Source: Psammoneis japonica (Eukaryota). From it: DNA of 64,000 nt. Below, in pieces: positions 13,981 to 58,529 of this stretch. Below the pieces are notes generated by a model that was given only the letters and a program-made list of their open reading frames with translations, had not been told where the DNA came from and ran no database searches. The stretch is taken from the NCBI GenBank assembly GCA_008632985.1, contig QPGO01000078.1:248001-312000 (forward strand), written 5' to 3'. Positions within the stretch are counted from its first letter, which is position 1. Each line of letters opens with the position of its first letter. The position numbers and the translations under genes are program-made.

Positions 13981-14131
13981 GACAGACTGACCCACCGAAA
14001 ACCGAGCGAGCGAGCGAGATCTCCGCGCGCGCGAAAGCAGACCGGAGACTGGGCAAACGCCATGACCCATGATGCAACTTCAAAAAGGCGGCGGCGGCGG
14101 CGAAAATACCGTAGGATATGATTGACAAAAG

Positions 14132-22961: not shown

Positions 22962-23145
22962 GGTCGAAAAGACGTCTTTGTTGTCGATGCTAATACTGTT
23001 TTGGGTTGAGAATGGTGTACGTATGATTGACGCTCTCCCCTGATGGCTCCTCTTCCCTCTTCGCCGCAACTGTCAACAACAACTCTATCTTCTCGCTCGC
23101 TCCTCGCTCGTCGTCACGCACTCTAGACTATGTAGGGCCCTACGG

Positions 23146-27539: not shown

Positions 27540-30500
27540 ATCAGCTCAAACACTTTGTCCGCGCCACACAGTCTTCGCTCCGATTGCATTCCAAACACCG
27601 CGAAGAATGCCAACACCGAGTGGAAACGGGCACGAAAAGAAAACAATGACACCTCCCTGCTGTCAACAGCAGATGAGTCTCCATGCAGAGACCATTGCAG
27701 GTGTGCCAATGGACATTCCTTGCACAAACTTGCATGCACAGCCATTGTCGCTCTTGTGGGTGCAGCACTTGAGTGCTGGCAGCATGCAGACCTGCGCCCA
27801 AAAGCCAAACTGTTGCACCAGCATGTGTGAGTGATGGAACACAAACAAAAATTTGTTCTGAAATCCCATCACTCCCCAATTTGCCACACCCACATCAATG
27901 CCAGTTTGACAAAAAATCATGGGGGGTGGCAAAGAGCAGGATCATGCAGAAAGCTCCAAACTTGGGAGCCACCAGCACAGTGTGCTTGTTGAGGCAGGAT
28001 GCCAGTGGGGTGCTGAAGTTTTCAATGAAACAAGGCAGATGCAATGGCCTCTTGCACATGGAAGAATGACAAGGTGGTGTGTCTTGGAGTGAGAGACAGG
28101 GGTGCCATCTGCAGCTGGCTTGTTGTCACTGAACAGGCCTCACTCCTCATCTCATGGGTCAGGATTCCAAGGCAGTGCAAAGCAGTGTGAAGGTCAACAA
28201 CTTGCTCTGCACAAGTTCTTGTGTGGCTCTCTCCAAAAACTCAAACAAAACCCATGCATCACAGCAGTCTCAACTGTGTGCTCTGTTTCTTGGAGAACCT
28301 GTTGACTGGGGACTCTCTTGTTGAGAAGGCAAAGGGGTTTGACCCCAGCAGCTGAGCAGCCTGCAAGCAAACAGCGGAGCAAGCTGGCATCAATGTGCAG
28401 CAAGTCATGGTGACAAACTTGCCAATGGGCTCAGGCACATCATCAGTTGGCAGAGTCTTTTCTGTGCTTTGCCACAAATGGCGCAAGCTCAGTCATGTGC
28501 AGCAGTTGCAGGGAAGGCTGGTCAGCCCTGCCCCTTGGCACAAACATGCAAAGCTCTGTGTGCCTCATTTTTGACTGGTGGTGCACACATGAAGATTGTT
28601 GAGCTTGACCAAAAAGATCATCAAATGAAGCCCATGAAGGGACATGTGCCACTCCAGCAGAGCAGGTGCTGGCTCACTGTTGATGGGCAGGAGCATCAGT
28701 GTGCTGAGGTGGCCATCTGTGACCAGTTGTGCCTTGTTGTGGCAACCACCATGCTCAAGAACACTGCACACAAGATCAGCTGCAATGACTGGTGTGATGG
28801 CTGCACAAAAACAATAGAAAATTGAGCCAGTCCATCTGTGTCTCCCCACATCTCACACCAAGACACCGTGGCAGCAAATCAAGAAGTGGGTGACATGTTG
28901 GCATGAGCAACATTGGATGTTGACTGAATCAAGTGCTCTGCAACTCCATCTTGATGATGAGCATTTGCACCACAGAAGTGCATGCTTTGCTGGGCACTGT
29001 TGATGTGGAAAAGAAACTGGTGGGCCTCAAAAGTGCTGCTGTTGGCAAGGTGGCTGAGTTTGGATGATTGTGCAATGCCCCGCTGCCATGGTCTCACATG
29101 TGCCTGTTTCACTTGAATGGCAATAACGGCAGATGCACTCCAGCCCCAGGTGGGACTGTGTGTGATGTTCGGCCCACAGAATTCTGCATGCAAGAAGTCT
29201 CACAGCAAAAGCATCAAGCAATGAACATGTGAGTGATTGCCAACAACAAAAGAGGTCATTTTGCAAATGCATGTCCTCCTCCACACTTCAAGTGCATCAC
29301 TTGCAGTTTGCCCAGGCACATTCTTCAGACACTCTGGGGTGCACCCAGGGCCTGTTTTTGTGCTCATGAATGCATCTGGAAAATGGGGGGCCCTTTGGTT
29401 TTGCAAAAAAGGGAGTGCGAAACTGTTTCATAGAAAATCACATGCAGAAATGCATGTGCATGACATGTGGTGTGATCCAAAAACCCACTGGTGTTGCAGT
29501 TCAGCAGCACAAGGTCTCACCTGGAGCTGGGGCACACATGGCAACATTGCAGGATCACTTCAGGGGCAAGTTTTGACTTGGTGGCAACTGGGACAGTTCA
29601 CAACAGCTCAATCTGGGTTCAACATTGCAATGGTCAAAAATGATGATTCATGACAATGGCGGTTCTGGGTCTGTGGATCAGCTCATCCGGTGGCCAGAGA
29701 AAAAGATGCATGCTGCGTGCCCATCGACAAAGGAGGAAGGCACTCAGATGTGCACAGACTCAATGTCAACAGACTGGAGATGTGTCTCTCCAATCAACAA
29801 ACAACAACGCCATTGAAAATTGATGAATGACAACTTGTTGATTGCGATCATGTTCAATGAGGACACATTGGTTCAGCACAGCAGCTCCGGTCAGTGAAAG
29901 AAAAGATGCTGTTGCACACTGCTTTTTTGGGCTCGATGACCAGCTGCAATGCTTGTGTGTGACCAGTGATGTCAAAGGAGCAAAAGCTCATGGTCACAAA
30001 CTAAAAGCTGTTGTTGTTGCAAAAGCTGTTGACTGAAAATTGTGACTGCAATGTGTTGATCAGAGATTTTGATGGCGGAATTTGAAATTGCAGCACATTC
30101 AATCACATGTGGAAGGCAGGCAGAAGGACAGACATCAACTCAAAGGGATGACAGAGGTGGCCATGCACCAGCAAGCTGGCAGAGCGCGGAGTGTGGAGCC
30201 CCATCATGCGGAGACGGAAATGGACCAATGATGGCGTTCCCTTCAGCGACCCATTTGGTGGCTCCAAGCCTCCATGACAGTGCTCTCTTGCTCCCTCTGT
30301 GGCCACCTGATCTGCCTCCCAACCACGCACACACCTTTGCACATTCTGTTCTCTGCCCGTGGGCTGTTTTTTCCATCATCATTGCTGCTGCCATCACAAC
30401 ATCAACGGCATTGCTCCCCCGCCGATGACCCAATCCATGACTCGGTCACTCCCTCGAACCTGCACCCCCACCAACAACACTTTGAATGACCTTGCCGCTG

Positions 30501-32052
30501 GCTCATCCCAAACAATGACTTGCGCCCAACCAATGAAACCAACTGTGACCACAGAGTCATTCCTCAACGTGGCCCTTTCCTCACCGACACCACAAAATGA
30601 CCGAATCGCCAACACCAATTGCCCCCTTCTTCTCCGCGACATCTCCCAAGCCCCAACGCCTCATCCACACCCAACACCTGGTGCTCGCCTGCCATCACTC
30701 GCCCATCCTTGTGTCCCCAACACCCAACGCCCACTCATTTACACTGCTGCATGCGCATCATTCACACACATCGCCCTGGGTCATTCAACGCACTTCCGCT
30801 GTCGCACTGAGACCCTCCGACACATGCCCGCAACACCCCCACAGCAGCAGATGTCAACGCCATCAGCAACAATGCTGGTTCATGACTGTGTCCCTCTGCT
30901 GAATTGAAAGCCAGCAGAGTTCCCAAAAACCAAATTTCGACCTCTCAAACACCAGTTTTCTCTGCCGACAGCCTTTTCTCTGCAGATTGCCACCTCGACA
31001 TGGATGAGTTTTTCCTCAACAACCTTGACCCCTTCAACACCAATCTGCCTTTCAACACTGATTGTCCTTTTGCTGATCCCTCCGATGACCTCTGCGACCA
31101 CTTCCACCCCAAAAATGATCTCTCAGATGACCCGTGCAACCAGTTGCACCCCAACAACACTCCACCCTCCAATGACAACACCCCTCTGAGCCTCTCCACT
31201 GCCATGATGACCTCCTGCCTCCTCTCATCAGTCTGTTCTGCCACTGACAACACCGCTGACCATTCGCCCATCCGAGCTCTATGTCGGTCTTCCTCCCATG
31301 TGGACCTGCCTGTCCTGGCCTCTGACGCTCAACTGGCCGCTCTGCGCTGGTCTTCCTCCCACATGGACCCCCCCACTTCCATTGGCACCCCGCCAATCTT
31401 CCTTCCATCACCTTTTGCCTTGATCCTCTGCCCGCTGCACGTGCTCCTCCTTTTGCTGTCCTGCCAACATCACCCTGTCTCACACGCTTTCTCTTCAATC
31501 CTTCAGTCCCACCTTGTTCTCCACCCAGGCTCTTGCACTTTTGTTGCCCTCCTTGAGTCTGCCGCTTCCTTCACCAGCTCGGCATGACTGCCAATCTCTC
31601 CTTCTTCCCTTTCTTGGTGCTTGCACATGCAATGGACCCTCAAATCCACACCCCACCTCCAGACCTTGCCCTCCTCATTCGCACATGCCTCTTCAAGCAT
31701 GCAGCTGAAGGCGACCCTCTCCTTCCTCTTGTCTGCCTTGTTCCCACAAGCCTTCTCTCCTTTGATGACTTCCTCCTCTACATTGACAACTGTGGTGAAC
31801 ACTTCACTCAACAGTCTGTCACTCACACCACCCCTCACATGCATGCACCAAGACAGTTTGTGCAACCTGCACACAAGCAATGAGAAAGGAGATGATGATG
31901 AGAAAGGAAGCACCATCGACGCGACAAGACGAGACAAGAGAGGAAGTGCCGTCAACAACCGGAGACCCATGGAATGACTGCTGACCAATGCCATCTTCCA
32001 TTGTTGATCTGAGTGATCTACAAAAATCCGTTGCGGCAGAGTGGTGCAGGCC
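27540..32052. mobile_element. Degenerate transposon remnants including Copia-like integrase fragments
   Basis: Minus-strand ANAHHQDGVAEHLIQ resembles Copia integrase HQNGVAER; 30950-31800 is homologous to 38230-38960; TpA nearly absent and CpG low. Confidence 0.5.
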
Positions 32053-32057
32053 ACATG

Positions 32058-35000
32058 TGTCAGCCTGTCCATCCTGCAATGGACAGACTGCACACGGATG
32101 ATGGCAAGACCATCCAGACAGACGAGCAGATCTCTCTGAGATCTGCCTCTCACTTTCTCATCTGCTGGTGCTCGTGTTGTCACAGTCCCAGTGCTCAGGG
32201 ACTCTTTCATGCCTCTGTCATCATTGACCTTCAGTGTTCTGTCAGGTCATGGCCTTGCGCTGTGCCACAGAACTCTGCGCCGCGCTTTCTGTTTCGATTC
32301 ATTTGTTTTGTGAGCCGACCGAGCAAGCCTCATCGTCTGTTCCAACAACAATTTTTTCCTTGCTTTTCCGGCATTTTTCACAATCGTAGAAACATGCCAG
32401 ATTTCTGCATGTGCATGACCAAAAATGCCACCACCAAGTCCAACCATGGTGTCTCCGAGAGGTGCAAACCCTCCTCCGACATCCATCACAGAGATCTGTC
32501 ATGAGTTCCAACAACACAACACTCTGCCGCATGTCCACACATCTTTGAACATGCTTCACGTGGATGCCATCCATGCCTTAGACCCCTTTTTTAAAGACCC
32601 TGAGCACGCGACACCCAAGACAAACTTTTTGGACTTGCTGTGTGCACATCTCATCAACAAAGCAATTCCACCTTGCACGGCAGACCCTGGATGATCCTAG
32701 ATCAAGCTCTGTTTCGCATTGTGGACCCTGCCAGGACTCGTGCACTCCATTTGACTCCTGAGAGCCTCTCTCACATGATCAAACTCTGTCTTTGTCAACA
32801 TGAACATGCTCCACACATTCTCATGTCAATGCAGCACATGCACTTCAATCATGATGTGCGGTGGAATTATGGAGATTGGAAAGAGTTTTCTCTTTCCCCA
32901 CATGCATCTGAACAAGCACCTGCGGCTCCACCGTCATTGACCATGAATTCTTCATTGCATTGCATGGACGATTTTGTCACGGCTCCATGTGACGTTGTGT
33001 GTGGTGACACACAGCCACATTTGACAGCTGTTGGGCATCATGGAGGTGCTCCTGTGCATGTTACATCCAAGCATCAACCTGAACAAGAGTCTGTGCTTCT
33101 TTCAGCAACAAACAGATCTTGCTCCTTGATCGGTGCACACAATCTTGTCAAGAACTGGCACAGTTCCCCATCCGCAACTGCGCCACTCAATGTGACTGCC
33201 AGCATTCATTCTGGAGGCACCAACATGTGTTTTACATCCAAGTGCATGCCATCTGTGCACAATCAAGCTCTTGTGCCTCCTCCATCGCTGCTCGCACCTC
33301 CCTCCTTGGCCAGCATTCCCGATCTTGTCACGGTGTCGTGTGATTCATCACTGGGATCTACACTGCCCATTGTGGCTGCCAACATGTCTTCTGGAGACTC
33401 TGCAGCAGCTGTCATGTCTGTGGTTCAAGATGCAACTCCTGACACCAAGACCACTGGCAAGAGTGAAATTGGTTCTCATGTTTGGGTCCAAGAATCCAGT
33501 TTCCGTCACTCAGAGTTGCACCCCGTCTCCACAAAGGGCATTTTCCTTGGCCACTCATCTGATGCCAACAAGCATGTCCTGTGGCAAGATCCTGACACCT
33601 GTCAGACCAAGATTGCCATGCACGTGTGCTTCGACGAGGGCATGGATGACTCTCCTCATGCGAAGGATCAATGCAATCAAGATCCTTCACCTTCTGGTGG
33701 CCATGACAGATGTGATTCACCTTCTTTGCTCTCTTCCTCACCTCAGGTCTCTTGTTTGAGCAATCATGTGTTTGAAGTCTCCAAGATGGACTCAGCTGCT
33801 GAGTCTGCCAGCCACACAGATGCAGATGTGACTCGAGTTGAGGATGCATTTGTCATGGGTGCTCAGATTAATCCCACGAATGCAAATGCACTGGATGTCA
33901 AGCCTGCCATGTCCATTGTGGTTCCTGTGAGTCTGTCATCTGCAGTTGTTGTTGCTGGCTCCCTGGCATTGCATGCCAACTTGGCAGAACTTCCCCTCAA
34001 CATCAAGGTCCCACTTCAGTCCCCCAGCATCTGTTGTGATCATTCTGTTGATTCATGCAAAGGTGGCATCATTCTTAAGATGGAGGATTTGTCCTCTCTT
34101 TCCAAGTGTGCCAATGACACCAGCAACTCCTGTGCCATTGTCATTTGATGTGGATGACCACTGTCACCACATGGACAGTCACCCAGTTCCCTTGCCTTTG
34201 GATTTTTGGCTCGGCCGTCATCAACCTTGGATGTGCGATGCCACCAATGCTCACATTGTCTGAACAAGACTGACAGCAGCGGGGTGACTGTGAAAGAGGG
34301 CCACTGAGCTTTTTCACCCTCCGCTGTTCCACCTCTTCCATCTGACGGGATGGCTGTCATTCATTGACACCACCTGTGCGAATCTGACGGCTCCGGTCAT
34401 GTCCACCCTTGCAGATGACGACCCAAGTCTTCCTCTTCAGGAAATGTCAAAACACAGCACCAAGCAAGCGAGCGAGTTGGCAAAGCATGTGATCGATTGT
34501 GGAGCTGTGTCCATGATGGACATCTCTTTGCATGGCACTTCAGATTGAACGGTGCTCACTGTGCATCCATTTTCTTCCAACATGGACAAAGCCTGTGGCT
34601 CCACTGCCTCTTCTCACTCAAATCTCCCGGTTGGATTGAGGTGCATTCCATCATCTCTTGGCTCAACTGGTGTGTTGAATGTGGTGTTTTTTTGCCATCT
34701 CTGCCATCATGGCGACACTCGCGTCTTGTGGTTTTTGATTGCTTTTGAATGATTGTGCTGCGAGACATGTCCAAGACTCGCCAAAATGTCTTGACAAATG
34801 CTTTTGTTTGTTGCAGAGCGACGTTCGCTGTTGTTGTCATCCAATGACCGCGTTGCTGGCCACAACCACCCCAACCCTTTTGACGATTTCAGTCCCGAAC
34901 CGCGATCAACCAATGGATCACTTCTGCCCTTTTTTTTAGGAACCCTCATCATTGATGATGTTTCCACCAATGGCATCTGCTGTGGTCATTCATGCACCTC

Positions 35001-36850
35001 TTTGCCATCCAACTGAGGCTCATGTCATGCTCTTCACTTGCTTCTGTTGGGACTTTCCCATGACTTTGGCACATTTGACGAAGTGTGCTGAAGATGCGCT
35101 TGGTGCAGCTGCTCAGATGGATCCCAGGAATGCCAAAGCATTGGACATCAAGTCTGCTGTGTCTGTTGTGGAACCTGTGGGTGAGCCACCTGCAGTTGTT
35201 GCTGCTGGATTTCTTGTCCCACCGAATCGATGGTGCTTCCCACTGAGGTCCACGCCTGCCTGCTCGTGACCCCAAAGTTTTTTGTTTCTGGCCATTCCAT
35301 TGTTCCATGCAACGATGGCCACATTTCTTCCAGTTGTGGCCTGTCCTTCATCATCAAGGTCACACCCAAGTTGCTTGCCACATGTGCGCTGCCGTCATCT
35401 GTCACCCATGGATGCCGCCAACACTTCGTTGGTTGTCAAGTTGACTCAAATTCGGATTTTTGGTTTGGCCGTCATCAATTTCGGACACACGATGCAGCCA
35501 TTCCTTCACTCATCTGAACAAGACCAATGAAGCGGGGCAGTTGTGAAAGAGGACCATGGAGTCTCACTGCCTTCCGCCAGCCCATCTCTTTCCTCTGTTG
35601 TCAGGATTGTCATTGCACCCAATTGTGCTTTTCATGGTGCTCCGGATGTGTCCACCATTGCTGATGATGACCCTCATTTGCATGATCAGGGGAGGGATCC
35701 CTGTGGCAAAGAGGCAACACACAAGGCTCATGAGCATCTGCAATCCGGCACAGACACCTTTTTTGGTGGCCAAGATTTGGACACACTGCTGTGCCTGCGC
35801 ATCCGTTCCTCCAACATTGAGGAATTTCACGCTGTTTTCTCTTTGTTCAATGAGCTTTGCAAGGGTGGAGCAACATGTGGCACAGGTGCAGCTCTGTCTC
35901 GCGGGTTGCTCACGATTTATTTTTGCCGCATCCTGCACCATGGCGACGCCATCAAGACCGTTGTGATCTCGAATGACATTTTTCATGGTGCTCCCGACCT
36001 GTCCACCATCGCTGATGATGATCCTGCATTTCCGGATCAGGGGAGGGATCACTGTGGTGCAGAGGAAGCATGCAAGGCTTTTCAGCATTTGAGATTCGGT
36101 CCAGACACATCATTTGGCAGCCAAGAATTGGCAGCACTGATGTGCTCACCTGCCATGAGTCTTCGTCCTTCCGACGTTGAGGACTTTTACGCAGTTTTCT
36201 CTTTGCCCAATGAGTTTTTCAAGGGTGGAGCAAGATGTGGCAGTGGTGCTGTTTTGTCTGGTGGGTTGCTTCCGCTTTGTTTTTGCCGCATCCTGCACCA
36301 TGGTGATTTCCCATTCTGCCCCATTTCATTGGATGAGATTCAGCGACATCACGACTCACCAGAATGTCCATTTGGCTTCAATTGCTTGTTGATTGACAGA
36401 TTTTTTCAATGGTTCAAGTCTCGATTGACACGCAAGTTTTGTTGGAAACTGCCGATGATTTTTTTGTCGAAGACTTTGATGGATCAACACACACGCGCTG
36501 CAGCCATTGCTGATTTGTGGTGGTTCCTTTGCGATCACGTGTTGAGCAACCCTGGACACCACTGCTTTGTTTTGTCATCCTTTGGTTTTCCTCTACATTG
36601 TCCCTGTTCTTTGGTTTGATCTGCACTGTCTTCTATCTCGAGACATTGCAGATCAGGGGAGGGTGTCAGCCTGTCCATCCTGCAACAGACAGACTGCACA
36701 CGGATGATGGCAAGACCATCCAGACAGACGAGCAGATCTCTCTGAGATCTGCCTCTCACTTTCTCATCCACTGGTGCTCGTGTTGTCACAGTCCCAGTGC
36801 TTGGGGAGTCTTTCGTGTCTCTGTCATCATTGACCTTTGGCACTCTGCCA
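32058..36850 (+). mobile_element. Non-autonomous Copia-type (CoDi-like) LTR retrotransposon
   Basis: 187-bp LTRs 32058-32244 and 36664-36850 (TG...CA); 5-bp TSD ACATG; PBS-like ggtcatggcc 32245-32254; PPT aggggaggg before the 3' LTR; KGIFLGH...HVCFDEGMDD post-integrase motif; no RT recognised. Confidence 0.85.
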
Positions 36851-36855
36851 ACATG

Positions 36856-39550
36856 AGCATGGCAGCACAGCTCCATGTCAAGGAGGGAGAAGCACAAGAA
36901 GACGGTTTCATGGGCAATGCAGTGGGTTTGGAAAGAAGGAGAAGAAGAGAAGACACAATCCAGACAATTGGCATGCAAGAGGAAGCACAAACAATTGAAA
37001 AAAGCTGCCATGATGAATTGGAACAACGAGGAGCAAGCGGGTTGCAAAAGAGTGCAGCTCCATTGGGCACTCAACATTCTAAAAGAAAAGGGCTGCACAA
37101 AATGTGTTGTGTTTGCCTGTGCACGGAAACAACACGTCTTGACTGCTTTGCAGTTGTTCCTGCAAGTGGCTGGCATGTCGCTCCAAGGACAAAGACTTTG
37201 AGAAGTGCTCCAGTCCTTTTGGGAGAATGGCGCCATTGCTTTGGAGAGCAATCAGCAAGACCAAGACTGCGCGGCCAGTCTCTTGTGTTTTTGGCAGATG
37301 AAGGATGTTCAAGAGAACTTTGCAAGGCCAGAACTGCTGTTGTCTGTGGACACCAATGAAGAGCGGAATGGCCAAGTGGCCGCCCAGGCCTTGGAGGATG
37401 CAGAGATGGTGGACAGCTGCGAAGGGTTGCCTCACGTGCTTCAAAAGATCGTTGCAAATTGCACAAGCTGCCATGATTCCCAAGATTTAGATGCTGCTTG
37501 CATGGCCCTTGCTGCAACTGTGGGGCATGAGTGAGACAGGTTCTCAAATGCTTCATCCAGCTTCTTCCTTGGACCAGCATGCCCATGATGCAAAGGAAAG
37601 CAAGGATGATGAGGACCAGGTGGGTGAATCAGCACCGAAGCACCACAGGAGCCTGTGAGCACAGTTTTCTTGATTGCAGGGGTGTGCCAGTTTCTGCTTT
37701 TTCAGCTGTTTGGCCAGACAAAAAAAGAAAGACCAGTTGAGGGTGATGCAGCAGAGAGATCCAATTTAGAGTGTTGTCAGGGTGTGCCGCAACTGGCCAA
37801 CCACCGAAAGGCAACAGGCAGGCGTCATGCATTTGCCATGCATCACAACATCTTGTGTGCCCAAATTGAGACCTTTGATCACTCTTTCAAGGGTGGTTGA
37901 ATCCACATCATGTGCTGATCTGATCAAACAAGCTCTTTTGTGAAGTGATGTGAGACATGCGCGAAGAATGAAATTTTGGCAACAAAGGCAATGCCATTCT
38001 TGCTCTGCAGTGCAGTTGAGTCGTTTGGTGTTCTCCCCAATTTTCAAAAAAGGAACTCGTGCATTGTTCCACCAGAGAGTGAGTCGTTGAGAGCAGCATT
38101 GGCATGCCATGGCCCTCTTTCATTTTGACAGAGAGCCAAAGAAAAGATGATGGTCGACAGACAGATCTTTGCTTTGTTGGAAACTGAAAATGGCAAACAG
38201 CATCCAAAGCAGCACTCTTTGACCAGGCACCCATCAGTTCTCTCTGCTGTTTGTTGCTTTGGCATGGATGAGTCATTCCTCAACCCAGGTTCATTTGATG
38301 ACCCTTCTGATTGCTCCTTTGAATGCAACCCTTCTGATGACTCCCATGAGTGCAACCCTTCTGACGTTGATCCTCAATCCAATGATCACAACTGGACCAC
38401 CACCCAAATGATTTCCTTCCTTCTTTCCTTGGTTTGTCCCATGAATGACAATGCTGCCACATGCTCCAATGCTCCAATGACCTTTGTGACTCCCAAAGTT
38501 GGTGTCAACAAGACTTCCCCAATCTTGTCTCTCATCCTCCCCTGCGCCAGTCTTTCTCCAATTTGGACTTGCCAGACCCAACTTGACATGACACCATTCT
38601 CCCACTGATCACCTTCCACCCAAGTCCTCCACCTGCTTCCCATCTTCCTCCGTTTGCAGCCCTTCCTCTGCCACCCCATTTTGCCCATTTTCTTGTTGAT
38701 CCTTTGGCTCCTCCCTGCTCAATCCCCAAGCTTCAGTCCTTTTGTTGCCCTCCTTGAGTCCGCCGTTTCCTCCACCAACTTGGCATCACCTCCAATCCAT
38801 CCTTTTTTCATTTCCTTGCACTTGCCTGCGCTGTGGACCCCCGCATTTTCACACCATCACCAGACCTTGCCCTCCTCCTTTGCAAGTGCTTCTACAATGA
38901 GACAGCCTGTGGTGAACCTCCCCCCTCTTTCGTCTGCCAAGTTCCCACACACACCTTCTTCACTTTGACAACTTTCTGTGAAATGCTTGGATGGATCAAC
39001 CAAGTTCTGACAGCACGTGTCAGAATGTGCTGCTTCCAGCTTGTCAACCTCGGCTTGCCCCCCAACCCACATCACACACCTGTGAAGAAAGCACAGAAGC
39101 TGCTCTGCCACCAGGTTGCTTTCCGCACTTGTCTGTGCAAAGGTCAAAATGTGATTGCATTCTCCCAACACCTTAAGCTGCACATCGTTCATTTCCTTGG
39201 CTCTTCAGGCATGTCCAATGTCTTCTTCACAATCCTGGGGGTTCCATCAAAATGAACAACGTGTCCTGGCAGACATGGCCAAACAAATCTCGATGCAAAT
39301 GGGGTTTCACTTTCTCACAGAGGTCATGGAAAACACTCACAACAGTGCTGGAGACAGGAACTGCTGAGTCAAAGCAGCCCTTCATTTCATCCATGCCAAA
39401 GACTGGCCACTTCACACTGGAGCACTGCTGGCATGCCTCACAAGTCATTCCTTTTGGCTCATCTGGAGGATTGTCCTTCTGCTCTTTTAGAAATGGATGG
39501 TGCAACTTGGCACCTGCTCAACATCAATCTAAAAGGGAGTCTTCAAAAAA
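36856..39550. repeat. Degenerate repeat related to 30950-31800 and 48000-48700
   Basis: Shared blocks, e.g. ttgttgccctccttgagtc at about 31540 and 38741, and cccaaattgagacctt at about 37860 and 48396; TpA-depleted. Confidence 0.55.
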
Positions 39551-39699
39551 AAAACCAAACCCCAATTTTAAGTGCTGTCGCACCTTTGCCCAGCAACTCC
39601 GGTGCCGGCCAACCCACACTTCCAGTGCACCCTGCGGAGGATGCGGCAGAAACACAGTGCAATTAGCCGGTTTCGGCACCCCTGTTAGAGGGCGCCCGA

Positions 39700-42210
39700 C
39701 AGAGACAGCTGCAAATGGCGCGAGTGCCGCTTTTTGCGAGTCATTTGGCTTCTTTCAGGCTGTCTTTTAATCTTGGACGGACCACAGAGATCCAGTTTTG
39801 GATCCTCGTTGTCGAAAATGACAGGTGTTCTTCGACCGAATCTAATGACACACCTCTGTCCTTTGCCAAGCATTCCTGTCGTTTGTTGTTTGTCGCCGTC
39901 AGTTCGGCTTCCGCCTTTCTTCTCTGAGATGATTTCCGAGACTCAACATCATGCCCATGAACCAACTTGTTGTGCTCCTCCCACAGTTCCCACCAGTTCT
40001 TCCACATGAAAGACCCCATCTGAACCGTCCAATCCAGTGGCTGTTTGTTTTCCTCCTGACATTGTCGTAAGATGCCTGAGTCGCGGAGGTGTCCGGATTG
40101 TAAAAGATTCCACATGCACGAGCATCTGCCGTTGAATGTCTGTCTCCATCCCATGTCCGATTGAGCTCTCCATGGTTCCTTGCATCGGCAATCCACGTCG
40201 TCGAGATGCGTCAGTTCTTCGTTAAACCAGGCCTGGAGCATTTCCAACAGAAAGTCACGGAGAGCAGGCATTGTGTCGATCTTGTCGCAATGATGTCGGA
40301 GACCCTGCAAGAACTTCCTTCTCCACTGTTCATCATTTGGACACCGAAGTGTGTGGTCCCTGTCCTCCATCGGATGCTCACATGTGATGCAGTGGTGCGG
40401 TCGAACTGGGTTGCATCTGTTTGCGATCTTGTTGGTCGGCAGCAAGTCATGGACCAGTTTCACGGCATTCACGTGTTGTTGTGAATGACGTTTCACCAGA
40501 ACCGCGTGAGCGTCCCAATCGATTGGATCCACCACTGAAGGATCCCATTTGTTCCGTTCGACAACACATTCCATCAGTTCAGGAGCAGTGGCAGCGCACC
40601 GGATCTGTTTCTTGCAGTTCGTCGTGATTGTGCATCCGTCAATCTCCAGATGCGAGAGGCAATGTGGCAGATGCTTGACCTGATGCATGTCATGCGGATG
40701 ATGGCCTTGACAAGCTCCTGCCAATTTGTCCGCTCGGATGTTAACTCTGGCATTTAATGGCAATGAGTGGATGGGAGATTGCCTGTCTTGATGTCCTTTT
40801 GCCCATTGCACTGGAGGCAGAGCGAGATCGGCTGCATCCGACAGTTGCGTCAAAGCTTGCTGGGTGTGGAGGATCTCATTCAAAACACCCCAATCCGGAG
40901 CCACAGCATTGGCCCCATGATGGCGAATGTGAAAGTCGTGTTGTTCATGTGCGTCATTCTCGGGATCACTCACCGGTGGGGTGGGAGTCAATTTAGACAA
41001 GCAGTTCGCCAGTGCTTTGTTGTCGCAATGAATCACTGCATCCAAAGGAACGGTGACACGGCAGTGTTCGCACAGCCGACAGATGAATCTTGCAATGGAT
41101 GGAATGCTGCACGCTTCTGCTTGGTGAGAGGACGGAGTCTTCCCAAAAACTGGCCCTGCACAATCCACTGGTGGTGCACCATCCACAGCAATGGTCCACC
41201 CAAAGGTGGCTCCATCTTGGACTGATCCATCACTGCCTGCGGTGAGATGAGACAAAAGAAAGCATTGAGCCACTGTTTGAGGAGAAACATGAAATGCCAA
41301 GTCTTCAAATGGTGTAGATTCCCACTTCTCGAGGCCCTGAAGATGCGACACAAAGGAATCTGGAGTGGTTGGAGAGTGGAAAGCGGTTGATGAAGTGCGC
41401 GGGATCTCAAAACGCCATCGTCCGTCTTCAATGGCAGACACCTCAACTGGGTGAGAAGAATCGGAAGGATTTGGTGCTGTCTCCATCTCTCTGACAGAAT
41501 CAGCGATTGTCCTGTTTGCTTGAAATGTGTCACAACCGGTTGGAGATGTACACACAAACACTCCTTGGATGGGGAAAAGCGTGCAGTTGATTGCATCCTC
41601 ATCTGGGACGGTGGCAGAAGCCAATCTCCTAGGGGCTCTTTTAAATGCAGTGACTTCGGATGGCACAGGGCTGAACAAAATTTCTTCCAGACTTTCCATG
41701 CTCGCTGGCATGGCTTGCACTGCTCGATGTTGTTGAGTGCACTGACACTGCTTTGCAAGGACGGTTCCCCTTGTGCTTTTGACCCATCCAGCGTCATCCC
41801 ATCTGAGAGAGCAATGTCTGAAACAGATGAGACTTTCAGGTGCAGACGGCAACAATTTAGCCACCGGATCTCACGCGCGGCAAAGGACTGGGAATGCAAA
41901 GCAACATCCATCAAGTGCTGGTCGTCATCTCGTTGAAGTGGAAGGACCCCGTTGTGGCGTAGAAACACCCGGCCATTGATCTGCTGTAAAAACAACCCAA
42001 CAGACGCGAACCATCTAGATTCCACATGAGGCAATGCGGCATCGACGTCCCACAAGAAACTCTCACCAGTTCCCAAGTTCAGTTGGATCCACGCTGCGGC
42101 GATGTGAAGAAGCTTGTGCGGTTGATCCTCCCCGAGCTGCAAGTGCAAAAGGGAGTCTTCAATGTCATGTGCAAAGGCATCAAAGCTGCCTTGTAGAAAC
42201 AGCAGGCGGT
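39700..42210 (-). mobile_element. 5'-truncated non-LTR retrotransposon with RNase H domain (Ambal-like)
   Basis: AGSDGSV, SSHQAEAC (expected SSYRAEAY), IHCDNKAL, WAKGHQD and NIRADKLA RNase H motifs; upstream LNCCRLHLKVSSVSDI; C-terminal CxxC..HxxxC knuckle. Confidence 0.75.
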
Positions 42211-44548
42211 TGCAGAATCCGGGCGAGTGCCATGTCTGCTTGGAATTTTTGTCATCAAAGCTCTCAACATGCTCTTGATGCAGGCTTCTTGCACTCTCTG
42301 GATGCTTGCTCCAGATTTCTTTCGAGTGTGTTGTGCAATTCTTTGGGCTTTCATGCTTGTGTCCTCTTTTGTTTTTTGTTTCCTTGCAGCACCCAGACTC
42401 CACATTGTGGCACTTCAGATCCCCTCCAATGATGACAGAGTGAGTCAATTCTTTGTTCAAAACCTTTTGACATGAGGGTTGCTGAGCAGTGCACCCAGCC
42501 AGTGAGATGCAACGGCTTCCCGCACTGGGGGCATTTTGTTTGCATGCTGCCTCCAATGTTGAAACTGTCATCCTTTGCGCTCTGTCAAAGATTTCTGGAC
42601 AAACAAAAACAATGTCCAAGTCAGAAGGAATCACGAATTCTTCCACTGCCTTCATGACTTCAGCTTCTGTCCATGATGGTCCAATGTGATGTTTTTCAGT
42701 GCAGAGCCTTGGGGGTGTGGGAATGTGCTTTGGGTGGCTTGGCATGACTCTGTCCAAATGCTTTCTCAGGTCTCCTTCTCTGAATTGAAGCAAGTCCTGT
42801 CATTCCCAGATGCCCTTCCTCTCTTTTGATCACTCATGGGCACTGCAAAAGGCATGCCACCTTTGTCAACACAAGGCAACTTGTCACATTCCTTCAGCTT
42901 CCTGAGGCATGCTTGGATGGGGTGAGCTCTTTTTCCACTTTTGGTGCTCGTCACATCTGAAGGGGTGGCAGAAGATGGTCGCGCGCTGGCTGCAAAGACT
43001 TTGAAGCAACATTTCTTCGGTGGAAGAACGCAGCCACAGACGACTGGGAAGACATGGCAAGTCATTGGAAACAACAACAGCTGCACGTGACAAGAGCACC
43101 AGTGCGACTGTTTTTGTCTCTGCACCCTTTTTGACTCTCGCTGATCTGGCTGCGCAAAGCACCATCATCATTTTGGTTGTTCGTCATGAGGAATTTAATT
43201 GCAACACAGAATGGCATGATGCACTGCACCAGAAAAAGACATGTGCCCAAGACGACATTGCTTGATGCTGCGATGCTCTGCATGCGTGCAAATTGGCACG
43301 CATGTCGCAGACACACGACACGCTGCGATGCACTCCGCAGCCTCTTCTGGTGTGTCGCATCGCAGCATGTCGCAGACATGTGAGAAAGCTGCGAGATGCG
43401 CCCACGCAGCCAAAATGAGTTTTTTTTCGACAGTGCTTCTACATGATCCCGTTTATTCTCTCGTGTCGGAGAGATCATCGGATCTCTCCATGCTGTCTGT
43501 GCTAGTCTGTCTGACAGAAGGGAGTGTGCTCCCCATCTCGGATGTCTGACAAAAACAAAAAATGCAGCTTTTGTGACCTTGCAAAAGCTCATCTCCTTTC
43601 GCGCTTCTGTGACTCCATTGTGTCGATGAGGAGATGTTCACAAAGGCTGAAGGACATCGACCGTCTATGTATGTCAAGCGACATCCGATTCTCAGCTTGG
43701 GGCTTGGGCTTGAGTGGAGATTCGGGACTCAACAAAGAATGGGCCGTGGGCTTCACGCAGGTTTAAAATGGTAAAAACGCCACCATATCCACGATTGAAG
43801 AAGCTCAACAGCCCATAACCCTCCCACGCTGAATGACGATGACGGCGGCGCAGACGGTTTAGATGCACTCGTCCGACACAATGGTGGCCGAGAGGGACAT
43901 GTTGGGAAGTGACATGTATACGATGACGACTTCAAGAGTCTTTTTTGCATTTTATACCGCTTCATTACAAGTCGACAAAATTTTGAAAAGCGGACGTGTC
44001 AATTTTGTTTGGAAACGAGAGGTTTTTTCAAGAGCAACTTGTACGACAATTGGATTGAGATTTTCTCTTTTATTGCGCACTATTGGAAGTACATAACTGC
44101 AAAAATACGTTTGCCTTTTATTGATCGAGAAGGAATGGGCATATGGCAAAAGAGTCCGACAACGGAAACAGATGATGCTCTCAGACTCCCGATGAATCTG
44201 GAAGCAGTGCAAATGATTCATTCATTCTCATTGCAGACGCACACCAGACGCATGTGTTTCTTGATTGGTTTATGAGCAACTACCAAAAGAACTGCTCTAC
44301 AAGAAAGCAAAGCATTGAGAAAAGATTCGCATCATCAAATCACCGTCGACATGGTCTTCGTCGAGTCGGAAGATTGACAGACGTTGTTAACAACGCGCGA
44401 GATAGATAGATCTGCGAGATCGATCGAACGCTTGCACGATGCGCTTCAGGAAACGAGAACTCTGACGCAACTAACGCGATCATAAATCACAAACCTGGTA
44501 CGAAACTCAAAGTAGCCTTCTCGTTCTTTTCGAAAACATTTATGCACA

Positions 44549-46453
44549 ATGATGATTCATCTCTCACACTACGTCTTATCCCTTCTCTTGCTTCCCTCGT
44601 GGAGTTTAGGCCAGCTCGAAACTAGCAGCATTGGAATTGGCAGTTGCAGGCTCCCCGAGGCATGCCTAATCGCAGAAAACTCGACTGTTGGGTATGGGTC
44701 GTGTAACAGTCATTCTAGTGATTACCCGCCATGCGCATGTCGCGGCTTCGACTATGACGATGACGGAGAGTTAGTGGAATGCTCCGGGCTGATAAATGTC
44801 ACGATTGGTGACAACAGCTGCAATGATGGGTATGCCTGTGCTGATGTCGCAGGCAGCAACATCAAAAACCATGCTTGTAATGGAGAAGGAGCGTGTCACG
44901 ATCTAACCAGAACAGCGATTAATGACAATTCATGCAATGACGAACGGACCTGCGCGAGTAGCAGAGAGTCAAAGGTCCGTGCTGGTTCCTGCAACGACCC
45001 ATACGCTTGCACCGGTCTAACCAAAACCGTGATTGGCGATGACAGCTGTAACAGTTATGAGGCATGCTATCTTATTGAGGCGTCAAAGGTGACTGCGGGC
45101 TCCTGTAATGCCGAAGGAGCCTGCTCTAGCATTGTCTCAGGAAATGTCAAAAACAACAGCTGCAATGCTGTCGGTGGTTGTCAATCTCAACGCCAATCAG
45201 TGGTGAAACGCGGATCTTGCAACGGGGAAAATGCATGCGCAGGAACAATCGACGGAGTGATTGACAACAGCAGCTGCAATGCTCTCCGTAGTTGTCGATC
45301 TCAAACCCGATCCGTGGTGAAACGTGGATCGTGCAACGGAAAGAATGCATGCCGAGGAACAATCGACGCCGTGATTGAAGCCAACAGCTGTAACTGTGAC
45401 TGGTGCTGTGCATTCTGCTCTAATTCGACTGTGCCGAGGAATCAATGCAACGGCATTACAAGCAGATGCAAATTCTGCGTGAAGGACGGCAGCAATGAGG
45501 TCGGGAAAGGCTCTTGTTATTATAACGCTTTTGCTTGTTCAGATATGGTGAATAGCACTGTGAGTGATGGCAGTTGTAATGGGGAGAGTGCATGTCGTGG
45601 GACCAAGAATAGCATGATAAGTGACGGCAGTTGCAATGGTGATTCTGTCTGTCGGGAGCTCGTGAATACAACGATTCAATACACAAGCTGCAATGGTTTA
45701 GAATCATGTCGATCTCTTATAGAAACAGTGATCAAAAACAGGAGCTGCAATGACTACGGACTTGACAGGTATCGTACGGATCGTGCATGTTCTGACCAAC
45801 TCAAATCTGTGATAAGCAATGGATCGTGCAATGGCAGCGAAGCTTGTCGGTCTCACACCAGGACCAAGATTCACGACCACAGCTGCAACGGGGACAACGC
45901 ATGTTCACATCAACAAGAGACAATCGTTGGACCAGAGTCATGCAACCATTATGACGCATGTCACTTTCAACAAAAGTCGATCGTTGGGTTCAACAATTGC
46001 AACAATTACTTTTCTTGCACCAAGATTGTCAATGCCGGCAGCCAATCCCACAGCTGCAACGGGGACCACGCGTGTTCAAATCAACAAGAGTCAATCATTA
46101 GACCAAAGTCGTGCAACGATGCCTACGCGTGCCATGAGCAACAAGAGACCATAGTTGGGTTGAACTCTTGCAACAATTTCTTTTCTTGTGCCAAGATTGT
46201 CAATGCCACTATCAGCGACAAGAGCTGCAACGCGGAGAGCGCGTGTAAACTCCAAAACGGCTCCCGCATTTTTAATTCGTCCTGCAACGGCAAGAAAACT
46301 TGTGTCGGATTGGCCGGCGCCACCATTGGACCTAACAGCTGTAACTGCCAAGCATGCTGCTACAAATGCTCTAACGTGACCGTGCCCAAGGGTCAGTGCA
46401 ATGATGACGATGGAGTCGGCATTGTGAATGGCATCTGCAGCTACTGTTTGTAG
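44549..46453 (+). CDS. Secreted cysteine-rich protein built of ~19-aa SCNxxxAC repeats
   Basis: Intact 634-aa ORF with signal peptide; repeat period about 57 bp; two modules each capped by NSCNCxxCCxxCSNxTVPxxQCN; normal TpA content. Confidence 0.85.
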   Translation: MMIHLSHYVLSLLLLPSWSLGQLETSSIGIGSCRLPEACLIAENSTVGYGSCNSHSSDYPPCACRGFDYDDDGELVECSGLINVTIGDNSCNDGYACADVAGSNIKNHACNGEGACHDLTRTAINDNSCNDERTCASSRESKVRAGSCNDPYACTGLTKTVIGDDSCNSYEACYLIEASKVTAGSCNAEGACSSIVSGNVKNNSCNAVGGCQSQRQSVVKRGSCNGENACAGTIDGVIDNSSCNALRSCRSQTRSVVKRGSCNGKNACRGTIDAVIEANSCNCDWCCAFCSNSTVPRNQCNGITSRCKFCVKDGSNEVGKGSCYYNAFACSDMVNSTVSDGSCNGESACRGTKNSMISDGSCNGDSVCRELVNTTIQYTSCNGLESCRSLIETVIKNRSCNDYGLDRYRTDRACSDQLKSVISNGSCNGSEACRSHTRTKIHDHSCNGDNACSHQQETIVGPESCNHYDACHFQQKSIVGFNNCNNYFSCTKIVNAGSQSHSCNGDHACSNQQESIIRPKSCNDAYACHEQQETIVGLNSCNNFFSCAKIVNATISDKSCNAESACKLQNGSRIFNSSCNGKKTCVGLAGATIGPNSCNCQACCYKCSNVTVPKGQCNDDDGVGIVNGICSYCL

Positions 46454-47739
46454 ACAAGGCGTGGCTCTCTTCGATACATATTTACATAGCAACGAGTCGT
46501 CATTGGACGTGAGGGATGGCTCTATATTCATTGCATATGATTCATATTGCGAGACGCAAAGAAACGAGAATAAGAGAGATACGTGCTCTATAGCCGTTCA
46601 CAAAGAACTCGCAATACAGGCGAAAGAAGAAATATACACAATTAGACAAATCTTATGTTTGATGCGATCGTTAGTCTCTTATCATTTATGAGTGGTGGGA
46701 GGATGCGTTATTGTCATTGTTTTCTCTAGGTGGACAGCGTTTGACCGCAACGTGTGCCGCCAGTAAAAAGAGGGCCGTGACACCGTGAATTGCTCATCAC
46801 ATTGCGAAGTGTGCGACATTCTCCATACGCGAAGCAAAAAGATGCAAAATTGACCCCGCGAATTGCTCGTCACATTGCGAAGTGGGGCCAATTCCTAGAG
46901 GACAAGTCCATCAAACCGCCGTGCTCTCGACAAGGATGCGTGAAAAGCTTGACCGCCACCGAAGCTGGCTTTCTCTAGATTGGCAGACCCTGTGCGCCAT
47001 CAAAGGCTTGCATCCGAGGAACCGTCATCATCAACTGGCAAGATGGCAGTGCGCATTTTCTGTGAAAAGCTGAATGCGCTCGCAGCTGGCACCAACCCAA
47101 AGCTGTCTTCCTTGCTTCTATTTGTTTCATTGTCGCTGCACAAAAGCAGCGCATTTTTCGCTCCCGTCTGCAGTGCTGCACTTCCCGCGCTAGAGTTCTC
47201 GGCGGGCTTTCGAAAAAGACGCTCTGGGCCATGCTTTTCTCTCGTGGCACACATCTTGGGGCTGGGTGGCATGTCTTCTTTTTGAACAACCGCTTTGAAG
47301 TCTTTCTCCTCTTCTTGCGGCTGGGCTTTTGTACGACGTACGACGTTTCTTTGGTGCACCTCTTGTGCAGACTTCTTTTGCAGCATCTTGGTGTCACGAA
47401 TCCTTGCTGTGAAAACGTTTCTATCTCTTCAAATTGATTGAATCCTCTTGTCTTCTCTGGTGTTGTGAAATGGCACATGGAGGAGTTGCGACACAAGACA
47501 GCTCTTCAATGGCTCTCCTGTTGATGGCGCGGCATGGTGCATTGGATCGGACGGGGTCTTGGCACAATCAAGATCTGTTCCAAACAAAACCTTTTGCACA
47601 TGAGCAGTCTGGAGTGGCTCTTTGTGGTCTGGCAGTGCGCATGGCCACGGGCATTCAACGATTGGAGAATTCAACAATCGAGTGAATTCAAATCGAAAAC
47701 CTGTGCACATCACTGCGGCTTGCCGTTTTCTGTGTTGGA

Positions 47740-47925
47740 GAGAAAAAATGTGAGATGGAATTTCCGGGAAAGATTCTCACACAGAATCTACAAAAGATTG
47801 CACCACAACATCTTTCTGCGGGTTTGCGCTCTGAGAAAAAATGTGAGATGGAATTTCCGGGAGACATTCTCACACAGAATCTACGAAAGATTGCACCACA
47901 ACATCTTTCTGCGGGTTCGCGCCCT
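47740..47925. repeat. 93-bp tandem duplication
   Basis: gagaaaaaatgtgagatggaatttccggg...ctgcgggtt x2 (tgtgagatgg at 47749 and 47842). Confidence 0.85.
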
Positions 47926-50005
47926 GCTCTGCTCTGTGATTTCTGATTGTGCGGAGCACAATGATTTTCTTCGTTTCACATGAAACTGCAGCAACCCTCA
48001 TTCAAACTGACTTGCCAGCATGTGAAACATGCTGGCTCAATTCAAAAAAAGGTGACTGAGGCTGCAATGCACCGCAGCAATGACAACGGCATGCCCATGA
48101 TGCAGCTGAAAGCAAGGATGATGAGGACAAGGTGAGCGAATCTGCGCTGAAGTGCCACAGGAGCCCATCAGCACAGCTTTCTTGATTGCAGAGGCATGCT
48201 GGTTTTCGCGGGTTTTTCAAACCATTCGGTCAGACAAAAAAAGAAGAAGAAAGACCAGTGGAGGGTGATGTGGCAGAGCCAAAGCTCACACACATGCACA
48301 GACCCTGGAGTGCTGTGGGCCCTGCAACTGGCTGACCACCAAAAGGCAACAGGCAGGCATCGCGCATGTGCCCTGCATCACAACATGTTGCGTGCCCAAA
48401 TTGAGACCTTCGATCACTCTTTTGAGGGTGGTTGAATCCACGTTGTGGGTTGATCTGATCAACCAAGCTCTTTTGTAAAGTGACATGAGATGTGAGTGAG
48501 TGAACTTTGACAAAGAGACAGCGCCATTCTTGCTCTCGTTGGCATGTGCACATTGCACCTCGCTTTACATGTTGTGTTGTTCTGTTGCACTCAATTGACT
48601 CCTCGTTTGGCATTCTCTGTGATTCTCCCCAATTTTCTAGAAAGGAACTCAAATTGTTCAAGAGCCCTCTCTGGATCGCTCTCCACTCTTGCTGGAGTGG
48701 CTGTGGCAGCCAGCTGGAGACTGCACTCCCAACTTGGCAGGTCTGCAAGGCTGCCACTGCCAGCAGAGAGCAGACTGCACAGCAGAGTGAAACGAAAGGA
48801 AGGACAACGGTTGATGGACAGAGCCTCATTCTGGTTTTTTTTGCTTTTTTTCTCCAGCTGGCTGCTGGAGCTAGAGAGCAGAGAGTGCTGCGAATTGCCA
48901 AACAATTGCGTGATTTGCGTGCCCGAAGCTCGAATGTCGCTGCCTGAAGCAACATTCACCATTCGCGCTGCAAATCATGTAGAACAATGTAGAAAACACA
49001 CTGGAACTCCCCTGTCAAAGCCAAATCTTTTTCTTGCAGTCGCCGTCACATCCACCATGAGTGGATCTGCAACGTGCTTGCCGCAGAAGCACTGAGGACA
49101 CTGACATTGCTGCCAGCGGTGATGCAATGCCAGCAGATGTTGAGAGAAACATTGCCATGGGAATGCCAGAGCCAGTGCGCCATCAAATCATCGAGCAACT
49201 GCAGAAGCCAAACTGCTGCGGCAACACCAAAAACATGAAGCAGACTCTCAAGGATGCCTTTTGCAGCACAAAGATCAAAAGGCTTTTCTTGACAGAACAT
49301 GTCAGAAGAAGATGAGGTGCTGGCATCGCTGTCTGTGACAAAGATTTTTGGCAAGTTCTGACAGGAACAACTTTGTGCAATTTGACCCGCTGCAAAATTG
49401 AATCATGTTGCTCACATCATTTCTTTTCATTTGGAAATTGAACAATGAGCAGCTGTGCTGACTCACAGGATGAAGGCACCACCATCATCAAAATGGGGCT
49501 CTGGAAGAATTGTGGTTGGCTGGCATTGAAGATCTTGATGAGACGGAGGAGAAGAGCACGATGCAACAATTTTTGGATTGGTGCTCTCCAAGGGCACTGG
49601 CTCGTTTGCACCTCTCATTGTGGTTCCTTCATGACATGATGCGCGTCAAGTGGGACACTGTGATGCTGAAACCCACTCCATGTGCTCTCTCATCTGCCCC
49701 ATGTGTGTGCTGGGTGCTGAAAAAGAAGATGTGTCACGACTTTGTCGCTGTGAAAATTGTGAGCCAGTTTAGAGCAGAGAAAATGGGATCGTGCGAATGG
49801 GGAATCTTGCCAAATCCCTGTTCGTTCGCATTTGGATCGCATCAAATCGATTGTGCACTCGCATCATGGATCGTGCGAATCAAGCCATCACGCGCCATGC
49901 ACAAGTGATGTCATCGTGTGGAATCACGCTGCCATCGTGGGCCAGACGACGGGCTGGTGTGCTTCACACGGATGCTCTCTTAGCATCCTTCTGGAATTGC
50001 CCAAG

Positions 50006-55118: not shown

Positions 55119-55269
55119 CAAGACCCAGAGCCACGCCCTCCTGTGGTCGTGCTTCCCAGGTGCATGTTAACAACACTGCGTTGCCATGTGCAAGAGGCTT
55201 GTGCACGGTCTCGCCGTGTTGTCCAGCAGCAAGGCATGCTGCACACTCCCCCATGATCAGGGCCGTCAA

Positions 55270-58200: not shown

Positions 58201-58400
58201 CGAAATTTAACGGTACAGTCGTTAGACGTACTGAACGAGCCTGCTACCGTAGTCCAGTTTGTCTCAGCCGTTGAATGGCTTCGCAGACGTTTACAGTGTC
58301 GACTGTCGAGTTGAGCACTGCTGGCGCCACCATCTGGTAGTGCCTTAATGGTTTGAGTCTTGCCCTTGCCATGTTTAGCATTCACAGCTATAAACAAGAT
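55270..58400 (-). pseudogene. Gypsy pol (protease, RT, RNase H, integrase)
   Basis: ALPDGGAS/IIGRDIL protease; SLDLNMGH, LPMGLCNSPDIFQ and RTHSDDLL RT; ADASKCQLG and TERELLAIVE RNase H; TMIDPATGWFE, HDRGTEF and NPQANATVERVH integrase. Confidence 0.9.
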
Positions 58401-58529
58401 TGGAGCAAGATGAGTCTTTTTAACTCGTTTGCGGGATTGGCCTACAACACGTGTACGATGGCAATTCAGTTGTTCATTTGCACATTCATCTGATGTGTCA
58501 AAACTGCCTGCATCGTGTCGGCCCCCTTC

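Follow-up and report, generated by a model that had tools for sequence, protein, structure and literature searches.

Why do the few TA dinucleotides left in otherwise TA-poor repeat DNA keep to a narrow choice of neighboring bases? The question is raised by a 64-kb stretch of the Psammoneis japonica genome (contig QPGO01000078.1, forward-strand positions 248,001 to 312,000), referred to here as the window and numbered from its first letter. About 38 kb of the window lies in sharp-edged blocks nearly without TA, which were delimited by segmentation as DNA with TA/(TA+CA+TG) below 0.08. The blocks carry retrotransposon relics and alternate with genes of normal TA content. The TAs that remain in the blocks, called survivors below, follow a graded flank rule that reaches three bases out from the TA in both directions. 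The main block and its replicates are listed here, none with a strand; LTR stands for long terminal repeat.

27549–43564: main hypermutated block, with 54 TAs left and 3362 CA+TG; contains a Copia-like relic at 32604–34145.
4425–11256 and 11786–13955: replicate hypermutated blocks, with 31 TAs left, the same flank rule and zero purine-TA-pyrimidine.
46928–50423 and 50813–51892: replicate hypermutated blocks, containing LTR-like copy A (49695–50373) and a 93-bp tandem pair (47740–47925).
54296–57515: replicate hypermutated block, with Gypsy integrase, RNase H and most of the reverse transcriptase (Pfam rve, Integrase_H2C2, RT_RNaseH_2 and RVT_1).
58590–62375 and 62768–64000: replicate hypermutated blocks, covered by segmentation and context counts.

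A first-pass annotation, made from the letters alone, had reported that the residual TAs between 28810 and 43700 concentrate in TAGA and its complement TCTA. On recount its figures are exact: 56 TAs, of which 26 are TAGA/TCTA, 26 are other TTA/TAA and 4 are elsewhere. The ten positions it quoted (28815, 29431, 31779, 32019, 32387, 33359, 38893, 41960, 42016 and 42194) are all TAGA or TCTA. The TAGA/TCTA share of 46% (26/56) is indeed above chance, with a binomial p of 2e-10 against a uniform expectation of 12.1%, and of 3e-8 against the 15.1% (141/934 TAs) seen in unmutated DNA of the window.

The enrichment holds after normalization for ancestral context, with context frequencies taken from the unmutated part of the window. 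In the main block, 25/54 survivors are TAGA/TCTA, giving an odds ratio of 4.8 against unmutated DNA (Fisher p = 2e-7). The eight other mutated blocks replicate it with 39/118 (33%), an odds ratio of 2.8 (p = 7e-6). When the background is unmutated transposon DNA (51893–54295 and 57516–58589), in which 27/200 TAs (13.5%) are TAGA/TCTA, the odds ratio for all survivors is 3.8. As a further null, the CA/TG sites of the mutated DNA were read as if they were TA, which controls for the composition of mutated DNA and also models TAs newly made from CA/TG; 1008/7845 of them (12.8%) have TAGA/TCTA flanks, giving an odds ratio of 4.0. Removal of repeated 10-mers leaves 162 of the 172 survivors, and the enrichment still holds (59/162 compared with 138/907 in normal DNA).

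The preference is wider than the one motif. Each TA was treated as a pair of half-sites, one per strand, each made up of the bases upstream (5′) of the T. Among survivors TCTA is enriched 2.55-fold and TTTA 2.43-fold, while ATTA, CTTA, GTTA, GCTA and TGTA stay near 1.3- to 1.5-fold, and NATA (0.10- to 0.44-fold), AGTA (0.24-fold) and GGTA (0.37-fold) are depleted. What stands out most is how few survivors are purine-TA-pyrimidine (RTAY), 4/172 compared with 28% of normal TAs; ATAT and ATAC/GTAT account for 0/172 compared with 21%. With normal DNA taken as the ancestor, survival is estimated at about 30% for pyrimidine-TA-purine (YTAR), 10% for mixed flanks and 1% for RTAY.

Fitted to tell survivors from normal TAs, a logistic model orders the bases at each position. 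At −1 the order is T~C>G>A (likelihood ratio 125.7, p = 4e-27), at −2 it is T>C>G~A (37.1, p = 4e-8) and at −3 it is A>T>G~C (19.5, p = 2e-4), while position −4 adds nothing (p = 0.29). The consensus is W-T-Y-TA for cold sites (TA-R-A-W when read from the opposite strand; W, A or T) and R-TA-Y for hot ones. Thus the extended, enzyme-like preference put forward in the first-pass annotation stands, and its choice of TAGA/TCTA as a special motif does not: TAAA/TTTA is equally enriched, the three-position rule is additive, and a TC-specific extra term in the model falls short of significance (p = 0.054).

The bias behaves like a rate difference, rising with the depth of TA loss. When 500-bp bins are ordered by TA/(TA+CA+TG) from at least 0.16 down to below 0.02, the share of RTAY falls from 28% through 25, 14 and 3% to 0%, and that of TYTA-flanked TAs goes from 28% through 26, 57 and 67% to 74%.

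What became of the lost TAs? In 2-kb bins of 28810–43700, the TA observed/expected ratio is 0.02–0.14, and CA and TG stand at 1.4–2.07. Most neighboring gene DNA has a TA ratio of about 0.4–0.6, and unmutated bins span 0.39–0.78. For all mutated blocks against the rest of the window, TA is 0.07 compared with 0.54, CG is 0.52 compared with 1.00 and CA/TG is 1.63 compared with 1.20, with the remaining dinucleotides unchanged (AA/TT, 1.18 and 1.15). The sum of TA, CG, CA and TG is 241.3 per kb in mutated and 243.0 per kb in normal DNA. Because this sum is conserved, the lost TA and CG are fully explained by the gained CA/TG, that is, by transitions. CpG decay and TA loss look like separate processes, as CG is down to 0.12 in 11786–13955 and 28001–30000 compared with 0.4–0.67 in other blocks with equally low TA.

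When the change happened can be read from repeat pairs and from a conserved reading frame, which are the following.

50004–50373, + strand: LTR-like repeat copy 1, paired with 54749–55118.
54749–55118, + strand: LTR-like repeat copy 2, paired with 50004–50373.
32057–32231, + strand: short direct repeat, paired with 36663–36837; the pair flanks the Copia-like relic and its members are probable LTR remnants.
55384–58130, − strand: Gypsy pol reading frame, the source of ancestral TAY (tyrosine) codons.

The LTR-like pair 50004/54749 differs at 19 of 370 aligned positions, made up of seven TG-versus-CA doublets, three cases of CG against TG or CA, one of TA against CA, and one transversion. Nine such doublets occur among 28 differing positions of the pair 49695/59640. 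In the pair 32057/36663, six of the nine differences over 175 aligned positions are three TG-versus-CA doublets, and TA is present in neither copy. Because a single ancestral dinucleotide ended up as TG in one member of a pair and as CA in its partner, the copies changed independently after they had separated, and hence the process acts on integrated DNA, after insertion. It gives transitions only.

The Gypsy pol frame was compared with 95 homologues (about 60% identity), and positions with Tyr in at least 60% of them were followed. The 29 conserved Tyr positions now read 11 Cys (TGY), 11 His (CAY), three Tyr, two Phe, one Ala and one Trp. Tyr is retained at 0/23 of those at or below 57515 and at 3/6 of those above it. 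A sharp edge of the mutated tract was observed within this one element, at 57400–58200.

How could such a rule arise? We consider it highly probable that the remaining TAs are the slowest substrates of a TpA to TpG/CpA process and that flank-dependent mutability causes the pattern. Such a process would work on integrated repeat-derived DNA, converting TpA to TpG or CpA at a rate set by about three bases on each side. RTAY would be erased first, and TAs preceded by T and then C or T (TCTA and TTTA, or TAGA and TAAA on the other strand) would be erased last. Because TCTA/TTTA would go last, the residue near saturation would be mostly TAGA/TCTA and TAAA/TTTA. The agent would be a sequence-reading enzyme, the likeliest candidate being a DNA adenine deaminase that would turn A into inosine, to be read as G. 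This candidate would need T before the target A and work best with T or C after it; the substrate it handles least well would be TA with a purine next and A after that. As to adenine deamination as the chemistry, we are evenly divided.

Since TA is its own complement, the survivors alone cannot show which strand reads the flank. Polarized cases were taken from repeat pairs with TA in one copy (8 cases), from sequencing reads in which other genomic copies have TA where the window has TG/CA, or the reverse (9 of the 40 places listed among 330 that differ, using three runs of one sample aligned to 44001–64000), and from the conserved Tyr codons. Among informative pair and read cases, those in which the strands differ, a pyrimidine follows the changed A in 7/10. 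It does so as well in 7/11 Tyr codons that are preceded by a pyrimidine, and a 5′-side rule of equal 3:1 strength is disfavored (7/11, p = 0.008). We lean toward a rule that reads the bases lying 3′ of the changed A. The balance of trinucleotides and 4-mers was also tried; five of six asymmetric classes fit TA-then-pyrimidine, a result that was not counted as the excess exceeds the possible loss.

Several results weigh against the account just given. The pooled direction test (14/21) is not significant alone (one-sided p = 0.095), nor is the table of Tyr codons (7:4 against 4:7, p = 0.39), and Cys:His is 11:11 overall where a strict TA-then-pyrimidine rule predicts more Cys. The borrowed ancestor fails as a proxy at the level of 4-mers, because CTGC+GTGG are in excess by 13 per kb compared with about 4.9 per kb of CTAC+CCGC lost. 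Also, TAs with one protective flank survive about 1.9 times as often as the product rule predicts. For TYTA flanks, ln S1^2/(S0*S2), where S0, S1 and S2 are the survivals with 0, 1 and 2 of them, is 1.30 (bootstrap 95% confidence interval, 0.52–2.13), and for Y flanks it is 1.21 (0.32–2.78). Unequal exposure time among blocks would bend this ratio the opposite way. This lack of independence between half-sites is more easily reconciled with recognition of the duplex step, or with exposure biased toward one strand, than with a separate event on each single strand.

Reading of the duplex TA step as a whole is the rival that survives best, and we hold it to be possible, though on the doubtful side. 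The step would be recognized by a symmetric enzyme, or by DNA shape at the junction of a pyrimidine run and a purine run, so that one protective side slows both strands. The chemistry may then be thymine oxidation, with 5-hydroxymethyluracil (5-hmU) or 5-formyluracil pairing wrongly with G; the latter base causes T>C transitions. Oxidation and deamination are indistinguishable from sequence because TA is its own complement.

Duplex reading accommodates the significant departure from the product rule, in that most protection comes already from one TYTA flank (survival of 5%, 26.5% and 38% with 0, 1 and 2 such flanks). All ten CTAC/GTAG survivors of the main block are TCTAC/GTAGA, a one-sided motif. 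The even numbers of Cys and His, which alternate along the Gypsy frame without runs, fit it too. No clear strand-coordinated tract was found in 500-bp bins, where the TG-versus-CA spread is 0.119 compared with 0.099 from counting noise. On the other hand, the direction cases within the window lean toward a strand-specific rule (14/21), and strand-biased exposure combined with such a rule would also break the product rule.

For thymine oxidation, what two sources offer is a lead only. One quotes studies of the 1980s in which 5-hmU prefers TA and TC contexts in a dinoflagellate, and itself reports no sequence preference of 5-hmU in Breviolum (PMC11071213); the other links dinoflagellate 5-hmU and its enzyme to transposon silencing (PMC11572971). 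As far as these sources describe it, 5-hmU resembles the present case in being an enzymatic change of T in microalgal nuclear DNA that is enriched on repeats. It differs in being a modification and not a mutation, and so it serves as a lead on chemistry only. In the literature searched, nothing was found for hydroxymethyluracil, dinoflagellate and TpA together.

We return to the slow-substrate account, which takes the remaining TAs to be old. They could instead have been newly made after saturation, by C>T change at CA/TG in certain contexts, for example from methylated CAG to TAG. The means are at hand: CA/TG is very abundant in the blocks (7847 sites), CpG decay indicates active cytosine deamination (CG observed/expected of 0.52 compared with 1.00), and TAG is among the enriched contexts. 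The flanks are wrong, however, as CA/TG sites read as TA are 12.8% TAGA/TCTA and 25% TYTA, compared with 37% and 69% of the real TAs. CAG methylation also leaves the equal enrichment of TTTA/TAAA unexplained, and new TAs would meet the same mutator, so that a steady state would still reflect flank-dependent removal.

The repeat pairs speak to the point directly. The pair 50004/54749 shares, as the first-pass annotation had noticed, just two TAs, ctgTAgaa at 50233/54978 and ttcTActt at 50338/55083, and both 93-bp repeats retain aTCTAc, at 47789 and 47882, again as it had said. It is unlikely that the same TA was re-created independently in both copies, so the shared TAs are survivors. A third TA, at 54775 (ATAA) in the copy 54749–55118, is CA in the copy 50004–50373. 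The unshared TAs, which occur in a single member of a pair, are TTAG (two cases), ATAA and TTAA. This evidence is small, with three shared sites and four unshared ones in young pairs. Taken together, we regard new formation as improbable.

Still less probable is a bound protein or base modification that shields TAGA/TCTA from a flank-indifferent mutator, the other possibility that the first-pass annotation had raised. A shield over the whole step would suit the one-sided action of the flanks. It does not suit a graded and roughly additive preference over three positions, in which TAAA equals TAGA, in place of one motif, and the strongest effect, the extra sensitivity of RTAY, is left unexplained by a TAGA shield; nothing in the data requires one. 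Least credible of all is ancestral composition or chance, with transposons rich in TAGA/TAAA from the start: normal DNA is by its 4-mer balance an imperfect ancestral proxy, but unmutated transposon DNA, with 13.5% TAGA/TCTA and 30% RTAY, looks like gene DNA, and the bias appears only where TA is depleted, rises with depletion and recurs in nine separate blocks of different origin.

Does a known system leave such a footprint? The closest is the TpA-restricted hypermutation of integrated giant-virus and virophage DNA described for Bigelowiella natans in a preprint, for which 231 de novo mutations in cell lines are given and an ADAT2 homologue is proposed as the adenine deaminase (Mettrop et al., bioRxiv 10.64898/2026.01.13.699255). 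As far as that text goes, the likeness is threefold: A:T>G:C transitions that occur only at TpA and yield TpG or CpA by strand; local action, with foreign or mobile DNA affected and neighbors spared; and a long-term footprint of TpA depletion with CpA+TpG gain. In the window, too, the transitions at TpA are found on both strands and are confined to regions of mobile origin, with genes spared.

The differences are equally plain. B. natans is a chlorarachniophyte, whereas the host here is a diatom-like stramenopile. The targets here are retrotransposon relics and repeats, the depletion is far deeper (TA observed/expected of 0.07) and the footprint is read from sequence alone, and CpG loss runs alongside. 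In the main text of the preprint, supplementary tables aside, the words context, flanking, trinucleotide and tetranucleotide each occur 0 times. In the searches made, published TpA to TpG/CpA hypermutation was found for B. natans only; literature on TpA and transposable elements in diatoms gave none, judged by titles and the starts of abstracts, and no extended-context analysis of TpA hypermutation was found in the literature searched.

In Neurospora and other fungi, repeat-induced point mutation (RIP) is a host process that converts C to T, chiefly within CpA, and so gives rise to TpA. The present process is like RIP in making transitions at one dinucleotide in repeated or mobile DNA, in leaving a sharp-edged footprint of dinucleotide bias and in killing reading frames. 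It is unlike RIP in direction and in the base concerned, since TpA is destroyed here and CpA/TpG is created. RIP itself was rejected because the block ratios (TA 0.07, CA/TG 1.63, compared with 0.54 and 1.20 in normal DNA) are its reverse.

Among enzymes, ADAR and TadA share with the footprint an A-to-I change read as A>G, a liking for U or T before the A and, as far as the sources describe them, graded preferences a few bases wide. Both are natural RNA editors, whereas the changes here are in DNA. ADAR1/2 are described as preferring a 5′ neighbor in the order U>A>C>G and G after the edited A (PMC11276115). ADAR-edited transposon RNA copied back into DNA was rejected, because TAG(A) is among the most resistant contexts (TAGA, 2.55-fold), AA/TT is unchanged although ADAR would edit AA as well, and the LTR copies diverged after insertion whereas such editing would precede it.

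The first-pass annotation had proposed a comparison with the known motifs of TadA and of DNA polymerase eta (Pol eta), and neither fits. The Pol eta signature is mutation at A in WA motifs (both TA and AA), and a good part of the changes are transversions. In the window AA/TT is unchanged, and the CA/TG gain fully offsets what TA and CG have lost, which leaves no room for many transversions. A TadA-like specificity was rejected too: the motif of the bacterial enzyme is UACG (PMC13170351), and TACG, with a survivor ratio of 0.78, lasts better here than TACC (0.37), TACT (0.24) and TATN (0.10–0.44), although CpG decay could blur this comparison.

The natural A34 substrates of ADAT2/ADAT3 include the anticodons AGA and AAN, which correspond to T-A-G-A and T-A-A. 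As these are the resistant contexts here, they speak against an unmodified tRNA-type specificity. Tentatively, and at clearly less than an even call, the rule may be the footprint of an undescribed DNA-editing enzyme that acts on TA in the silent repeats of diatoms, perhaps of the wider SAR group, that is shared with Bigelowiella and that has a specificity unlike ADAR, TadA and the tRNA-type ADATs. With the same reserve, such an enzyme would be fast on RTAY and slow on T-pyrimidine-TA, would read three bases on each side and would let one good flank protect the whole step.

The rest of the window consists of the genes between the blocks and of further repeat remnants. The genes with normal TA encode fasciclin-domain proteins, a cysteine synthase, a C2H2/PHD zinc-finger protein and a DUF7640 repeat protein. 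Both the fasciclin genes and the cysteine synthase (14126–15439) are spared neighbors of mutated blocks. The best match of the cysteine synthase has 70% identity, and its best named relatives are in diatoms (Nitzschia, 55%; Minutocellus, 57%), in keeping with a diatom-like alga.

Two of these genes carry tandem repeats. The C2H2 zinc-finger/PHD gene (20112–23072, − strand) has five to seven 99-bp tandem units at 22100–22900, with 61–85% identity, an expanding array located in unmutated DNA. The gene at 44516–46450 has seven DUF7640 repeats with internal tandem duplications of 114 and 171 bp, and keeps normal TA while adjoining a mutated block.

A Pfam scan of 150 open frames, drawn from mutated blocks and from the intervening unmutated DNA, gave as credible matches the Gypsy domains and one weak Copia domain only. 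The latter, a retroviral SH3-like domain, is the one weak match in the Copia-like relic (32604–34145), for which a word-based search found no longer homologue. An exhaustive search of the relic returned 45 proteins, all matching one stretch within about residues 260–410, and tblastn with 10 of the 45 aligned only 33381–33662.

Two overlapping frames of 709 and 588 residues (39744–42799, − strand) have no Pfam match. They are probably open only because TAA and TAG have been erased. As TGA is then the only stop left, long spurious open reading frames arise in mutated blocks, and gene callers could take them for genes.

By reads, 49337–60675 consists of very high-copy families. The segment 51893–54295 is AT-rich (GC about 39%) and has Gypsy-like coding remnants on the + strand, with a TA observed/expected ratio of 0.78. 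It is flanked by heavily mutated LTR-like blocks, and its read depth is 5000–9000 compared with 66 for single-copy DNA. Being high-copy with near-normal TA, it is an element that escaped the mutator when its surroundings did not. In addition, one read contig of near single-copy depth (56.7) passes from 48910 to 61676 over 9 other letters and omits 12,765 bases of nested transposons. It may represent an allele that lacks the nested-transposon insertions, a weak case with only 27 letters on the shorter side.

The window adds the role of positions −2 and −3, the equality of TAGA and TAAA, replication in other blocks with a dose-response, the proof of survivors from an LTR pair, the non-additivity of the flanks and the poor fit of the ADAR, TadA and Pol eta rules. 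A DNA-level A:T>G:C mutator directed at mobile DNA mirrors fungal RIP, and the printed record of one is a single preprint of 2026, on a different alga, whose main text names no extended preference. As the rule is graded and several bases wide, it points to a sequence-reading enzyme rather than to diffuse damage, and it excludes several textbook candidates by their known neighbor preferences. It also supplies an assay, in which oligonucleotides with fast and slow contexts are compared; if such an enzyme exists, the footprint would be sharp enough to pick it out with TATC against TAGA. For the genome, the rule explains why long-dead repeats keep a small and predictable residue of TA, and it would let annotators model the age of a mutated tract. 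The neighborhood of a surviving TA is a usable fingerprint of the agent that did the mutating.

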